Source of the DNA: a virus
Lineage: Duplodnaviria > Heunggongvirae > Uroviricota > Caudoviricetes
IMG/VR virus record: IMGVR_UViG_2695420650_000004
Length of the DNA stretch: 4,951 nucleotides
Reading direction: 5' to 3' (one strand)
The notes below the pieces were generated by a model, which saw nothing but the letters and a program-made list of their open reading frames with translations, made no database searches and was not told the DNA's origin. Positions 2,813-4,951 of this stretch are shown in pieces (position 1 is the stretch's first letter; the number at the start of each line of letters is the position of its first letter). Made by a program: the position numbers and the translations under genes.

Positions 2813-3178
2813 ATGGCACTGACGAAAAAACAACGTGCAGAACTGCGCATGAAGTTCGGTGGTCGCTGCGCTTATTGCGGCTGCGAACTTGGCGAAAAGT
2901 GGCATGCAGACCATGTAAAACCGGTCATTCGTTTTGATGGAAATATGCTTCACCAGGAACGTGACGATATATCCAACATGGTACCAGCATGCCACCCATG
3001 CAATCTGCACAAGCATTGCAGTAGCCTGGAAGATTATCGACGAATTATCAGTGATGGTCGTCGTGAATTCCTTGCGTCCGGGAAAGGCAAAGCGCTGGTT
3101 CGTATGGGATTGGTTGAAATGAAATCTGACCCGGTTGTGTTCTGGTTTGAAAAATATCAAGAAGGGGCTACGGCATGA
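2813..3178 (+). CDS. HNH endonuclease (small, about 121 aa)
   Basis: Zinc-knuckle and catalytic motifs: CAYCGC ... HADH ... N ... CHPCNLHK. Ribosome-binding site AAGGA at 2800-2804 sits 8 nt before ATG 2813. The longer ORF from 2723 lacks a ribosome-binding site and adds a non-domain N-terminus. Confidence 0.85.
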   Translation: MALTKKQRAELRMKFGGRCAYCGCELGEKWHADHVKPVIRFDGNMLHQERDDISNMVPACHPCNLHKHCSSLEDYRRIISDGRREFLASGKGKALVRMGLVEMKSDPVVFWFEKYQEGATA

Positions 3179-3840
3179 CCACTATTACCAAAGAGCGACT
3201 GCAATGGCTGGCTAACATTTCTGGCCGCGATGATATTGACGATATAGACGGCGGTGAAATTCGTGAACTGGCGCTTATCGCTCTGGCATCACTGGAAGCA
3301 GAGCCTGTAGCGGAATGCATTGTTGAAGATGGGGGCATGTGTATTGACGGGTTCGGTGAGTATGTGGGTCACTCGCTGCCTGATGGAATGCATGAGCTTT
3401 ATGCTGCCCCGCGAATGCGACAACCTGATGGATGGAAAGCCGTAGCTGTAGCGTGGAAGGTGACGTTTACTCAAGTTGACCAGGAATCTAATACGTTCAC
3501 TGCTATATATTTTGACAAAGCGGAAGTTGAGTGTTGGGTACGACTGCATAAAGCATGTGATTTTCGGGCAGATATAACACCGCTTTACGCAGCGCCGGCA
3601 GTGCCGGTTGCAGTAAACGACGACATGGCTTACGCATTCCATCACGCACTGTCAGATTCATCGCTTGGCTCTGATGAAATCGAAGAAATTAAAACCGGTT
3701 TGCGTGCTGCCTTTGCCAACGTCACTATCCAACCAGAGCCGATAGTGCCGGATGAAATCGGGCCAAACGATAGTAATACGTTTGATTATGTTGATGGCTG
3801 GAACGCCTGCCGCGCTGCCATGCTTAAGGGAGATAAATAA
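3175..3840 (+). CDS. Hypothetical prophage protein (221 aa, acidic) with an internal repeated LYAAP motif
   Basis: ATG 3175 overlaps the HNH stop (ATGA), with GAAGGGG at 3161-3167. The LYAAP motif occurs twice (HELYAAPRMRQPDGW and ITPLYAAPAVPVAV). Function is not recognised. Confidence 0.8.
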   Translation: MTTITKERLQWLANISGRDDIDDIDGGEIRELALIALASLEAEPVAECIVEDGGMCIDGFGEYVGHSLPDGMHELYAAPRMRQPDGWKAVAVAWKVTFTQVDQESNTFTAIYFDKAEVECWVRLHKACDFRADITPLYAAPAVPVAVNDDMAYAFHHALSDSSLGSDEIEEIKTGLRAAFANVTIQPEPIVPDEIGPNDSNTFDYVDGWNACRAAMLKGDK

Positions 3841-4205
3841 TGATTAATCGAACCAAACTGGAGCACATTCTCGAATATGCCAGGCAGCAGAAATGTATTG
3901 GGCAACTTTGTAAAATTCCACCAGGAGATATGGTTGAAATCGTGGAAATGGCCATGCGTAAGGCTGGCAACTCTCCGGTAGCTCCGGCTGGCTGGATAAG
4001 CTGTAGTGATGCAGTTCCTGCTGAATATTGCGATGTGATTCTTCTCGATGATCTCGGGAATGTATTCCCCGGTTCCTGGGATAAGGTTTTTTGCCCCACT
4101 CGTGGCGGGAATAAGATGGCTTTTGTGGACAAAGACGGCGTTGAAGTAGAGAGCTCAACTCACTGGATGCCGCTACCGGAACCACCGCAGGAGGTGAATC
4201 AATGA
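3840..4205 (+). CDS. DUF551-like phage protein
   Basis: Start overlaps the upstream stop (TAATG), with ribosome-binding site AAGGGA at 3826-3831. The C-terminus THWMPLPEPP is the hallmark I associate with the DUF551 family common in lambdoid nin regions. Confidence 0.8.
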   Translation: MINRTKLEHILEYARQQKCIGQLCKIPPGDMVEIVEMAMRKAGNSPVAPAGWISCSDAVPAEYCDVILLDDLGNVFPGSWDKVFCPTRGGNKMAFVDKDGVEVESSTHWMPLPEPPQEVNQ

Positions 4206-4285
4206 CCTGGCCTGAGGCATTCACCACGGTAGGAATTGCGATGGCGGTGGCGCTGGTGGTGTATTCGATTTGCCGTTGGGGTTAA
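4202..4285 (+). CDS. Small hydrophobic peptide (27 aa, MTWPEAFTTVGIAMAVALVVYSICRWG), putative single-pass membrane peptide
   Basis: Not in the ORF track because it is too short. A consensus ribosome-binding site AGGAGG at 4189-4194 sits 7 nt before ATG 4202, which overlaps the DUF551 stop (ATGA). It is followed 10 nt later by a strong intrinsic terminator. Confidence 0.5.
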   Translation: MTWPEAFTTVGIAMAVALVVYSICRWG

Positions 4286-4294
4286 CAAACAAAA

Positions 4295-4321
4295 ACCCCG
4301 GATTGATGGTCCGGGGTTTTT
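4295..4321 (+). terminator. Rho-independent terminator closing the HNH/DUF551 operon
   Basis: An 8-bp GC-rich stem ACCCCGGA/TCCGGGGT (4295-4302 and 4310-4317) with a 7-nt loop, followed by TTTT at 4318-4321. An A-run upstream means it could work in both directions. Confidence 0.8.
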
Positions 4322-4455
4322 GAAGGAAACAAAACAGAAACAGCAATTGCCGTTACCTGTTGTTACCATGGCAAGTAAACGTATCTCAGGCGAGCGCATT
4401 GCGCCGTTCTGACGCAGATAAACTAGCCTGGATAGATGGTGCTGGCAATAAAAAA

Positions 4456-4491
4456 TAGCGTTTTCTTATCGGTGTCGGTAAGATTGCTGCG
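4456..4491 (+). promoter_or_regulatory. Putative weak promoter of the hok/mok mRNA
   Basis: -10-like TAAGAT at 4479-4484 with a poor -35. The predicted start near 4491 would give a 5' end GGGUGCUUGAGG, resembling the plasmid R1 hok mRNA 5' end (GGCGCUUGAGG) as I recall it. Confidence 0.4.
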
Positions 4492-4540
4492 GGTGCTTGA
4501 GGCTGTCTGCCTCGGGTATGTCACTGTAAGGCAGACAGAG

Positions 4541-4611
4541 AAAAGCCCCAGTTAACATTACGCGTCCTGCAAGACGCTTAACATTAATCTGAGGCCCAAT
4601 CTATGTCTCAC
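4541..4611 (-). ncRNA. sok: Sok-like antisense RNA (type I antitoxin), predicted
   Basis: A minus-strand promoter is readable as -35 TTGCCT (complement of 4641-4646), a 17-bp spacer, and -10 TAACCT (complement of 4618-4623), which parallels my recollection of the R1 sok promoter. The transcript would be antisense to the mok ribosome-binding site and start codon. A predicted terminator is a 7-bp stem (complement of 4589-4595 paired with 4545-4551, one G-U pair) followed by UUUU. Confidence 0.5.
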
Positions 4612-4815
4612 AAATGTAGGTTAGCCTCTTACGTGCCGAAAGGCAAGGAGAAGCAGGCTATGAAGCAGCAAAAGGCGATGTTAATCGCCCTGATCGTCAT
4701 CTGTTTAACCGTCATTGTGACGGCACTGGTAACGAGGAAAGACCTCTGCGAGGTACGAATCCGAATCGGCCAGACGGAGGTCGCTGTTTTCGTAGACTAC
4801 GAATCTAGAGAGTAA
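4603..4815 (+). CDS. mok: Mok-like reading frame (in-frame N-terminal extension of hok that couples hok translation)
   Basis: ATG 4603 with GAGG at 4591-4594. The 70-aa ORF MSHKCRLASYVPKGKEKQA-MKQQ... has the same architecture as chromosomal MokC/HokC as I recall it. Confidence 0.6.
   Translation: MSHKCRLASYVPKGKEKQAMKQQKAMLIALIVICLTVIVTALVTRKDLCEVRIRIGQTEVAVFVDYESRE
4660..4815 (+). CDS. hok: Hok/Gef family type I toxin (51 aa)
   Basis: MKQQKAMLIALIVICLTVIVTALVTRKDLCEVRIRIGQTEVAVFVDYESRE is near-identical in pattern to HokD/RelF and HokC/Gef. Ribosome-binding site AAGGAG at 4645-4650 precedes ATG 4660. Confidence 0.85.
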   Translation: MKQQKAMLIALIVICLTVIVTALVTRKDLCEVRIRIGQTEVAVFVDYESRE

Positions 4816-4876
4816 GAGTGACCAGGCGGGAGAGTAATCTCCCGCCACCTTTGATGTGTCAGGCATCCTCAACGCA

Positions 4877-4914
4877 CCCGCACTTAACCCGTTTCGGCGG
4901 TTTTTTTGGTAATG
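4877..4914 (+). terminator. Probable 3' end and terminator of the hok mRNA (weak hairpin plus U7)
   Basis: CCGC...GCGG and CCG-TTT-CGG pairings followed by TTTTTTT at 4901-4907. It lies just downstream of the 3' fold-back element GCACCCGC at 4874-4881. Confidence 0.45.
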
Positions 4915-4951
4915 ACTCCAACTTATTGATAGTGTTTTATGTTCAGATAAT

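Follow-up and report, generated by a model that had tools for sequence, protein, structure and literature searches.

A 27-codon reading frame widespread in enterobacterial prophages very probably encodes a single-helix membrane microprotein

Small membrane proteins are regularly missed by genome annotation, and more and more of those encoded by phages turn out to regulate host physiology. The stretch of Caudoviricetes DNA analysed here (the window, 4,951 nt) raises such a case: is an open reading frame of 27 codons on the plus strand, at 4202-4285, a gene, and if so, what might its product do? The frame opens with ATG 4202-4204, closes with TAA 4283-4285 and encodes MTWPEAFTTVGIAMAVALVVYSICRWG. 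A first-pass annotation had pointed to an AGGAGG at ideal spacing, a start codon overlapping the upstream stop, and an end 10 nt before a terminator stem, and all three are borne out. The Shine-Dalgarno sequence AGGAGG (4189-4194, plus strand) is separated from the ATG by a spacer of 7 nt (TGAATCA), and the start codon is embedded in an ATGA overlap (4202-4205, plus strand), since the preceding frame stops at TGA 4203-4205. Such a start/stop overlap is an arrangement typical of translational coupling. The preceding gene (3840-4205, plus strand) encodes a protein of 121 aa with a DUF551 domain (Pfam PF04448, E=3.4e-19; RefSeq "DUF551 domain-containing protein"), and its final codons contain the AGGAGG, so that its 3' end supplies the ribosome-binding site of the small frame. 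Downstream, a two-way intrinsic-terminator hairpin (4290-4322; A-run, stem, T-run) ends the operon in the window; its G+C stem, CCCCGGA/TCCGGGG, begins after a gap of 10 nt (4286-4295) from the stop codon.

A frame this short, and one absent from RefSeq annotation, could simply be open by chance. Copies were retrieved with degenerate DNA patterns, viral contigs being scanned twice and genome contigs once. About 177 copies were found in viral contigs, and further matches in 94 phage records and 226 plasmids. The frame is exactly 27 codons long in 170 of the 177 copies. Homology among copies extends from the ribosome-binding site, about 15 nt 5' of the ATG, to the stop codon, where TAA and TGA interchange, and the flanks vary from copy to copy, with at least six upstream and at least 15 downstream sequence classes. 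The genome-contig scan returned seven loci, and only those in E. coli and Shigella were real; the matches in Xanthomonas, Streptomyces, Mucilaginibacter, Flavihumibacter and Cytophagia had unrelated translations and were set aside as chance.

The first-pass annotation had proposed comparing synonymous with nonsynonymous change in related prophages, and the frame passes this comparison. By a simple count without a phylogenetic tree, made on pattern-retrieved sequences of which many are closely related and restricted to codons left free by the search pattern, the ratio of nonsynonymous to synonymous changes per site is 0.31 in the microprotein frame (minimum-spanning trees of distinct sequences). 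Codons 16-27 give 0.25, and codons 2-19, taken from an independent pattern set, give 0.41. The synonymous excess is significant (p=5e-12 and p=8e-8). The other two frames on the same strand have ratios of 1.06-1.72 and carry stop codons in 73 of 73 and 69 of 73 distinct sequences. Nonsense changes are about ninefold rarer than the substitutions seen would predict (one observed versus approximately 9.1 expected; Poisson p=0.0012). In the second pattern set, a nonsense or frameshift change disrupts about 3 of 153 copies, and loss of the gene is thus tolerated in some prophages. The antisense frame that shares wobble positions with the sense frame likewise has a low ratio (0.30) and is open in 67 of the 73 distinct sequences, but it has no conserved start, stop or flanks. 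A 66-aa antisense frame at 4199-4399 (minus strand) was also considered and rejected: the ratio in that frame is 0.92, and the downstream part of the ORF falls in non-conserved sequence.

The family also extends well beyond the close copies. Protein database matches were sought with the window sequence extended in frame to 41 aa. A profile search of 1.84 billion proteins recovered divergent members in which the motif is retained, among them MNITNWPEAFTYIGCAFAIAIIFYSMFRWG and MEISWPEAIMWIGIAFAAALAIYSIMRWGD; the contigs that encode these two have a GC content of 29% and 36% and are unrelated in nucleotide sequence. Divergent members of 30 residues from low-GC metagenomic contigs share the motif xWPEAF..G.A.A....YS..RWG, and the family as a whole, at around 27 residues (range 24-35), occurs in temperate phages. 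On related contigs the gene lies between repressor and integrase, a position that fits early expression. Of two contigs with divergent members, one (L188) matches Proteus phages over only 9% of its length, and the other (L189) has no phage match and carries a kinase-like neighbour that is a widespread environmental protein. Frame conservation, the selection ratio, the nonsense deficit and the divergent relatives all contradict a chance origin, which we regard as extremely improbable. Purifying selection acts on the amino-acid sequence, and the gene boundaries are conserved. Thus, the first-pass proposal that the ORF is a true small gene, with a hydrophobic peptide of one helix as its product, is supported, and the ORF is very probably a real gene, whose translation is predicted from these comparisons, for a tiny single-helix membrane protein.

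What kind of product does this gene encode? The peptide is helical and hydrophobic, and its location in a membrane is predicted. Its GRAVY is 1.09, AlphaFold2 models it as a single helix over residues 3-27 (pLDDT 88), and the hydrophobic core noted at first pass is evident in the best 17-residue window, F7-I23, with a mean Kyte-Doolittle hydropathy of 2.11. The product is probably one transmembrane helix of roughly 17-19 hydrophobic residues, with tryptophans W3 and W26 at the two interfaces. Natural stop-loss variants gain basic tails, such as EGIKKRPAHRR, which would suit a cytoplasmic C-terminus; the N-terminus is likely to be outside and the C-terminus inside. Among 47 distinct peptides, each of the residues W3, P4, E5, A6, G11, A15, Y21, S22, C24, W26 and G27 is kept in 42 or more, and positions 8-10, 12 and 16 are free to vary among hydrophobic or small residues. 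This pattern of conservation would favour a specific interaction over bulk hydrophobicity.

The first-pass annotation had called the gene untracked, which holds for the RefSeq/PGAP records inspected: neither in strain FDAARGOS_944 (99.7% identical) nor in the others is a CDS annotated between the DUF551 gene and hok. It does not hold for GenBank and nr, where the peptide is present as an unnamed hypothetical protein; NCBI nr lists the exact 27-aa sequence under the names 'bacteriophage protein', 'hypothetical protein' or 'prophage protein'. Some database entries are named 'DUF551 domain-containing protein, partial', a carry-over from the neighbouring gene and not a family assignment, and neither the DUF551 nor the Ead/Ea22 domain (PF04448, PF13935) matches MTWPEAFTTVGIAMAVALVVYSICRWG. 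No significant family match was found in Pfam, NCBIfam, PHROG or PADLOC; the best PHROG matches, phrog_4612 (E=0.019) and phrog_29902 (E=0.033), are not significant, and weak matches to DUF883_C, the POT family, KdpF and B12D were dismissed as ordinary transmembrane-helix similarity.

The microprotein is widespread in prophages of E. coli, Shigella and Salmonella. Of the 20,395 records that derive from complete E. coli assemblies, we estimate that about 1,700 contain it, and a single genome can have as many as ten matching places. It is present in Shiga-toxin phages, including 933W and VT2-Sakai, as well as in P1-like phage-plasmids. The K-12 prophage regions Qin, DLP12 and Rac contain no copy, and K-12 ribosome-profiling resources are for that reason probably uninformative. 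Among the rows examined of the Sakai Ribo-seq catalogue, no ORF is shorter than 93 bp. The peptide is absent from the supplements searched of the Sakai small-gene paper and of 'The Cryptic Bacterial Microproteome', and a full-text search of a literature library for its WPEAF motif returned nothing relevant. The microprotein would represent an uncharacterised family carried by temperate phages.

The signals at the start of the gene are kept as consistently as its length. The ATGA-type overlap with the upstream stop is retained in 172 of 177 copies, and an SD-like core lies within 20 nt 5' of the start in 166 of 172. Two main junction types occur, CAGGAGGTGAATCA and GTGGAGGATGTTTTACG, each directly followed by the ATG, and the start codon and SD-like core persist across at least six upstream contexts; in one of these GTG replaces ATG and is preceded by its own GAGGAGG. 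Translation could proceed from the microprotein's own AGGAGG, or by termination-reinitiation at the ATGA after the DUF551 or Ead/Ea22-like gene. The small frame is -1 relative to the DUF551 gene, and this frame stays open upstream of the ATG over 19 codons; a programmed frameshift from DUF551 into the microprotein was discarded, as no slippery heptamer was noticed when the junction sequences were read.

The genes upstream raise the possibility that the microprotein is a detachable membrane anchor or partner of the preceding protein, made in fixed ratio with it through translational coupling and acting jointly with it at the membrane. Consistent with this idea are the overlap itself, present in those 172 of 177 copies, and the identity of the neighbours: the microprotein gene is usually preceded by an Ead/Ea22-like or DUF551 gene, and the upstream genes that can be classified are mainly mosaics of these two kinds. 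In the window, the 221-aa gene that precedes DUF551 in the same gene string (3175-3840, plus strand) begins with the N-terminal motif MTTITKER...ALASLEAEPVA, which recurs in Ead/Ea22-like and DUF551 mosaic proteins upstream of other copies; its assignment to a family is inferential, because only this motif is shared and the protein has no Pfam match of its own. Moreover, the neighbours (PF13935, PF04448) are sometimes fused to the microprotein in frame. In one such fusion (P0116; 143 aa; PF13935, 35 bits), found on six contigs from several samples, the microprotein forms the C-terminal 27 residues of an Ead_Ea22-domain protein, and further examples are the 206-aa fusion P0120 and the deletion fusion P0115. 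Against an anchor, the fusions retain an internal ATG with GGAGAG 9 nt upstream, so that separate initiation is still possible. In addition, the C-terminal ends of the upstream partners are of at least four unrelated kinds, quite different genes follow the same DUF551 3' end elsewhere, as in plain mosaic gene slots, and the genes before the divergent members on L188 and L189 have no recorded Ead/Ea22 or DUF551 match. We consider an anchor role quite unlikely.

The same low standing applies to a bolder version, which casts the WPEAF...RWG microprotein as the membrane component of an early-phage module of two parts. Produced in fixed ratio with the Ead/Ea22-like or DUF551 protein before it, and sometimes fused to it, the microprotein would tether or activate that protein at the inner membrane and thereby influence the lysis-lysogeny decision or the exclusion of other phages. 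Ea22 is reported to favour lysogeny (PMC7093339), and the ea22 paper mentions no small ORF downstream. Were such a module real, it would provide the first cellular address for the large and puzzling Ead/Ea22/DUF551 gene set, and would explain why the end motifs are kept in phages of very different hosts.

Downstream of the gene, the surroundings are variable. The hairpin at 4290-4322 lies outside the conserved unit, because the downstream sequence falls into its many classes, and a perfect hairpin with a T-rich tail is found within 70 nt downstream in only 33 of 172 copies. In 933W-type prophages the microprotein stop codon abuts the hok promoter, with no terminator between them, and in P1-like phage-plasmids and metagenomic relatives further genes follow on the same strand. 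Thus, the first-pass description of an operon end is correct for the window and many copies, but is not a defining feature of the gene. These contexts bear on a reading in which the peptide is functionless and the locus acts in cis: its translation, by carrying ribosomes to within 10 nt of the terminator, could for example shield the end of the mRNA, avert Rho polarity or modulate termination, or its DNA or RNA would serve as a recombination linker or structured element. The ATGA coupling and the short distance to the hairpin in the window would suit such a role, as would the observation that plus-strand RNA from 4180 to 4330 folds somewhat better than shuffled controls (z=-3.1), though mostly from the terminator. 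However, a cis role would leave the amino acids unconstrained, yet the selection ratio is 0.25-0.41, unique among the same-strand frames, and the motif survives complete nucleotide turnover in the low-GC relatives. Since the downstream context is also unconserved, with some copies in mid-operon, we judge a cis function to be very unlikely.

A feature often found downstream is a hok/sok type I toxin-antitoxin locus. In the window it spans 4491-4815 on the plus strand (Rfam RF01794, 118 bits; Pfam HOK_GEF, E=6.7e-22), with the hok mRNA 5' region and sok complement at 4491-4665, mok at 4603-4815, and hok at 4660-4815, 375 nt downstream of the microprotein gene. A hok mRNA 5' box occurs within 400 nt downstream in 112 of 172 copies (65%). 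The link between the two is one of position. HOK_GEF (PF01848) does not match MTWPEAFTTVGIAMAVALVVYSICRWG, and the real hok/mok/sok is a separate unit. Like the microprotein as predicted, Hok/Gef, TisB, DinQ, ShoB and Ldr are small hydrophobic inner-membrane peptides; Hok, however, is twice its length and has a periplasmic domain, which the microprotein lacks. Hok/Gef systems are recognised by the HOK_GEF domain, which spans about 50 residues, by an overlapping frame, mok, and by the antisense RNA Sok. Type I toxins in general are recognised by a promoter of their own and by an antisense RNA, encoded in cis or in trans, that controls translation; the scans found neither for the microprotein gene.

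Could the microprotein nevertheless be a toxin? In this scenario, a 'kil'-type toxin would remain silent in the lysogen, where the early operon is repressed, and after induction would oligomerise and depolarise or permeabilise the inner membrane, or block division. The peptide is small and very hydrophobic with a single predicted helix, its small-residue face could support self-association, its gene has an early-operon location, and it adjoins another membrane toxin, hok, in about two thirds of copies. Early operons of lambdoid prophages encode accessory proteins that act on the host envelope or on division: lambda Kil, Rac KilR, and Qin DicB and YdfD are proteins of 47-73 residues encoded in mosaic regions and dispensable for plaque formation, and Kil, KilR and DicB are soluble. 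The microprotein is likewise a short early-operon accessory product of a mosaic region, but it has no sequence similarity to these proteins, and its family is absent from the three K-12 prophages examined. Other observations weigh against a toxin. Unlike type I toxins, the gene has no antisense RNA, promoter of its own or long structured leader that we could find: in simple scans, no promoter-like site was seen in 3800-4951 and no Rfam family overlaps the ORF, a search in which an antisense RNA of an unknown kind could be missed. Its translation appears to be coupled to an ordinary upstream gene, the peptide has no charged or amphipathic tail, PADLOC gives no match, and the retention of specific end motifs across distant hosts fits recognition better than generic membrane damage. 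On balance, toxicity seems unlikely.

A holin-like role had also been suggested at first pass. Holins and antiholins are usually proteins of 60-150 residues with at least one transmembrane domain, expressed late from genes beside the endolysin in the lysis cassette. In the matching prophage, the microprotein gene follows the replication genes and precedes the Q-like and lysis genes; the Q-like gene and tRNA genes intervene before holin and lysozyme are reached, 4.2 kb downstream. This early-region position, well upstream of the lysis cassette, and a product of only 27 residues speak against a holin role.

Another parallel is offered by AcrZ, MgtS, MgrB, KdpF and CydX/AppX, bacterial single-pass inner-membrane proteins of fewer than 50 residues whose one hydrophobic helix packs against a larger membrane protein. 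Regulators of the AcrZ/MgtS type are often missed by annotation, and often sit at an operon edge with overlapping or tightly spaced start and stop codons. The microprotein shares their small size and single predicted helix, but has no sequence relationship to them; they are chromosomal, whereas it is phage-borne and, at 27 residues, at the very short end of the class. The best score against a known small regulator was to KdpF (TIGR02115), at 14.7 bits versus a cut-off of 26.85, and KdpF is defined by its location in the kdp operon, whereas the microprotein gene is in a prophage.

Taken together, we consider it reasonably probable that the locus is a real, uncharacterised phage microprotein gene whose product, a predicted membrane helix, acts as a modulator by packing against a partner. 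The gene would be transcribed after the replication genes, within the early gene string of the phage, and the microprotein would act inside the inner membrane through helix-helix packing, much as other small membrane proteins of bacteria do. Contact would be made by the conserved small-residue face formed by G11, A13, A15 and A17, together with the conserved end motifs WPEAF and YS(I/M)xRWG. The microprotein could pack against other copies of itself or against a membrane protein of either the host or the phage. Partner binding is our best guess, drawn from analogy and motif conservation, and a self-assembling, membrane-perturbing peptide would fit the same data. For its size, the microprotein is unusually well defined: its length is fixed, the motifs at its two ends are conserved, and purifying selection on it is clear. 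Its role may lie in induction, lysogenisation or exclusion, or in an interplay with the adjacent hok/sok and Ea22-like genes.

The small ORF (window 4202-4285, + strand), a predicted membrane-microprotein gene, encodes MTWPEAFTTVGIAMAVALVVYSICRWG. It directly follows a gene for a 121-residue DUF551 protein (3840-4205, + strand; PF04448, E=3.4e-19), whose TGA stop overlaps the small-ORF start as ATGA, and an AGGAGG (4189-4194, + strand) lies 7 nt upstream of its ATG. A G+C stem is found 10 nt past its stop, in a hairpin (4290-4322) with an A-run and a T-run at its sides, so termination would be possible in either direction. Beyond this is an intact hok/mok/sok locus (4491-4815), a type I toxin-antitoxin system with the hok mRNA 5' region and sok complement starting at 4491 (Rfam sok, 118 bits), mok at 4603-4815 and hok at 4660-4815 (HOK_GEF, E=6.7e-22). 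The features described in the first-pass annotation, namely the ORF, the AGGAGG, the ATGA overlap and the spacing to the terminator, were all found where it had placed them.

The segment 3840-4620 is 99.7% identical to a prophage of E. coli FDAARGOS_944, where the gene order begins with YdaU-like and DnaC-like replication genes, DUF977, an IS3-family element, DUF4014 and an HNH gene. It continues through the gene for a 221-residue protein and the DUF551 gene into an unannotated gap containing the small ORF, followed by hok, DUF1367, DUF1364, DUF1133, tRNA genes and then holin and lysozyme genes. This order puts the small ORF last in an early gene string located downstream of the replication genes. 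No RefSeq feature covers it in FDAARGOS_944 or in the other records inspected. Separately, the window has a run of 22 N at 2515-2536; the corresponding place in FDAARGOS_944 is occupied by a frameshifted IS3-like ISEc52 transposase, and an insertion appears to have been masked or removed in the window.

Two degenerate-pattern scans of IMG/VR viral contigs, anchored in the N-terminal and C-terminal halves of the peptide, yielded about 177 copies, which collapse to 73 different nucleotide sequences and 47 different peptides. Copies are similar from the ribosome-binding site, about 15 nt upstream of the ATG, as far as the stop codon. The flanks fall into at least 6 upstream and at least 15 downstream sequence classes, and downstream neighbors include the hok promoter, several unrelated terminator hairpins, an ea22-like gene and an opposite-strand toxin-antitoxin pair. 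In comparisons of mosaic lambdoid genomes, such sharp boundaries between varied flanks are the usual mark of a self-contained gene module. Exactly 27 codons are present in 170 of the 177 copies, the stop interchanges between TAA and TGA, and in one context a GTG start with its own GAGGAGG replaces the ATG. Substitutions were counted on minimum-spanning trees of the distinct sequences, leaving out codons fixed by the search pattern. In the ORF frame, the nonsynonymous-to-synonymous ratio per site was 0.31 over all unconstrained codons of pattern 1 (excess of synonymous changes, p=5e-12), 0.25 over its codons 16-27, and 0.41 over codons 2-19 of pattern 2 (p=8e-8). The two remaining same-strand frames gave 1.06-1.72 and are broken by stops in 73/73 and 69/73 of the distinct sequences. 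One antisense frame also scored low (0.30); it shares third positions with the sense frame and is without conserved start, stop or flanks. A 66-residue antisense ORF (4199-4399) was rejected, having a ratio of 0.92 and relying on flanking sequence that is not conserved. Given the number of substitutions, roughly 9.1 nonsense changes were expected; 1 was observed (p=0.0012). Frame conservation and the in-frame ratios of 0.25-0.41 bear out the proposal of the first-pass annotation, and on this comparative evidence its claim of a real, overlooked gene for a small membrane peptide, with a predicted membrane helix, is upheld. As far as comparative analysis reaches, we are highly confident that the small ORF is protein-coding; a purely cis role for the segment is very improbable, and a chance ORF even more so.

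Of the 177 copies, 172 have a start that overlaps the upstream stop as ATGA. The gene in front usually encodes a mosaic Ead/Ea22-like or DUF551 protein ending in ...HWMPLPEPPQEVNQ or ...KLPDKAMDYLKRNGLISVEDVLR, with an L0139-like coiled-coil protein and EaA as further upstream types. In other prophages, the same DUF551 3' end and Shine-Dalgarno sequence precede other genes, encoding an HTH protein or DUF4752, which makes the junction an ordinary mosaic gene slot rather than one specific to the peptide. The recurring part is the AGGAGG-containing final ~40 nt of DUF551-type genes (...HWMPLPEPPQEV..; loci L183-L185 compared with window 4160-4205), and the HTH, DUF4752 and small-ORF genes that follow it are mutually unrelated; this segment behaves as a shared junction for recombination and putative translational coupling. 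The peptide shares its frame with an Ead_Ea22-domain protein in a group of enterobacterial-type prophage contigs (L190-L194), where it is encoded between repressor and integrase. The resulting products have 143 residues (P0116, 6 contigs) and 206 residues (P0120), and their genes keep the internal ATG and a GGAGAG. The peptide is also annotated as the C-terminus of an Ead_Ea22-domain or other upstream protein in P0115, P0106 and P0045. These in-frame cases may be natural fusions or read-through calls, and they hint at a functional link to the upstream gene. A role for the peptide in anchoring the Ead/Ea22-like or DUF551 protein encoded upstream, or in partnering it at the membrane, is in our estimate distinctly unlikely.

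The peptide has a GRAVY of 1.09, and its most hydrophobic 17-residue window is F7-I23. AlphaFold2 with the family alignment predicts a single unbroken helix over residues 3-27 (mean pLDDT 88), in which the spacing of W3 and W26 would suit the two membrane interfaces and G11, A13, A15 and A17 make up a face of small residues. W3, P4, E5, A6, G11, A15, Y21, S22, C24, W26 and G27 are each kept in at least 42 of the 47 distinct peptides, while positions 8-10, 12 and 16 vary among hydrophobic or small residues. Natural stop-loss variants gain basic tails, such as EGIKKRPAHRR, which under the positive-inside rule points to a cytoplasmic C-terminus. Codons 13-19 (window ~4238-4258) form an imperfect hexanucleotide repeat (GCGATG/GCGGTG/GCGCTG), and dozens of contigs carry in-frame expansions to AMAMAMAM or AVAVAV variants of 29-35 residues (P0071, P0083, P0084, P0085, P0090), so the length of the predicted transmembrane helix is polymorphic.

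More distant relatives were sought with a profile built from 16 members, which gave 48 matches at E<0.001 among 1.84 billion representative proteins. Divergent 30-residue members, including MNITNWPEAFTYIGCAFAIAIIFYSMFRWG and MEISWPEAIMWIGIAFAAALAIYSIMRWGD, come from metagenomic contigs of 29% and 36% GC, in tight arrays of small same-strand genes, and their nucleotide sequences have no resemblance to the E. coli copies. The motif common to the family is x-W-P-E/D-A-F/I-x-x-V/I-G-x-A-M/F-A-x-A-L/F-x-V/I-Y-S-I/M-x-R-W-G. On one low-GC metagenomic contig with a divergent member (L189, 811-3311), a weak PP2C-like phosphatase match is adjacent to a 549-residue kinase-like protein with hundreds of environmental homologues, for example in metagenome-assembled Desulfobacterales genomes.

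Alignment and modelling together reveal a conserved, selected, hydrophobic and predicted-helical 27-residue product, placed for possible translational coupling to the preceding gene. The small ORF would be expressed early after infection or induction, and the peptide would enter the inner membrane in an N-out, C-in orientation and work through helix-helix packing with a partner. We hold this composite explanation with moderate confidence. A self-assembling toxin is a less probable account, which we consider unlikely: conservation limited to two very short ends and one helix face, at positions retained in phages whose hosts differ greatly in composition, favors a specific partner over bulk membrane damage.

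The small ORF had also been placed at an operon end. It is the last gene of this string, but in P1-like phage-plasmids and metagenomic relatives more same-strand genes follow closely, so the position is not a defining property. Of 172 copies, 112 (~65%) are followed by an intact hok/mok/sok locus, with the hok mRNA 5' box no more than 400 nt downstream. In 78 copies this box is within 50 nt of the stop with no terminator in between, and read-through from the early operon would enter hok directly; in 933W, the stop is a few nt upstream of the putative hokW promoter, as read from the sequence. The linkage may be functional or a mere reflection of one successful lineage. In the window, a 205-nt insert (4286-4490) that 933W-type prophages do not have separates the small ORF from the hok promoter. 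Its minus strand (4286-4450) is predicted to fold into three hairpins ending in the two-way terminator (-63.2 kcal/mol, z=-6.2 vs shuffles). The insert occurs in 39 of 5,426 E. coli genomes, annotated in none, and Rfam gave sub-threshold matches only; the insert may represent a small RNA gene in antisense orientation, or what is left of one.

By tblastn, the peptide was matched in 94 phage records, including 933W, VT2-Sakai, Min27, BP-4795 and ArgO145. It is carried by 226 plasmids, 217 of them typed non-mobilizable; most of the plasmids listed are ~90-110 kb in size, and two that were inspected appear to be P1-like phage-plasmids. With a query covering the ORF and 42 nt of the DUF551 gene, blastn hit 2,355 records in 2,272 of 5,426 complete E. 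coli genomes, at up to 10 places per genome. Because 15 of 60 evenly sampled rows matched the DUF551 part only, we estimate the small ORF itself at about three quarters of these, roughly 1,700 E. coli records. No copy was found in the Qin, DLP12 or Rac regions of K-12 MG1655.

No model in Pfam, NCBIfam, PHROG or PADLOC matches the peptide, and public databases name it 'hypothetical protein', 'bacteriophage protein' or 'prophage protein'. Several NCBI entries (P0014, P0046, P0048, P0050, P0056-P0058, P0060, P0069, P0074) are misnamed 'DUF551 domain-containing protein, partial', being the peptide alone or with a few out-of-frame upstream codons, and clustering at 90% identity groups the 27-mer under representatives that are true DUF551 proteins. 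This naming and clustering is an artefact that hides the family. Full-text search found no paper mentioning the peptide sequence, which is also not among the entries examined in the supplements of two small-ORF catalogues. By membership criteria, it fits neither Hok/Gef nor any recognisable type I toxin, holin or KdpF homologue. With its predicted membrane helix, it is alike in kind to bacterial small single-pass membrane regulators and to small proteins of prophage early operons, and we file it as an uncharacterised addition to the known class of small membrane proteins. The gene finding is solid and its kind unsurprising; what gives it value is that the peptide family is so common and so sharply defined, and that it has a fixed position by Ead/Ea22/DUF551 genes and hok/sok in Shiga-toxin phages.
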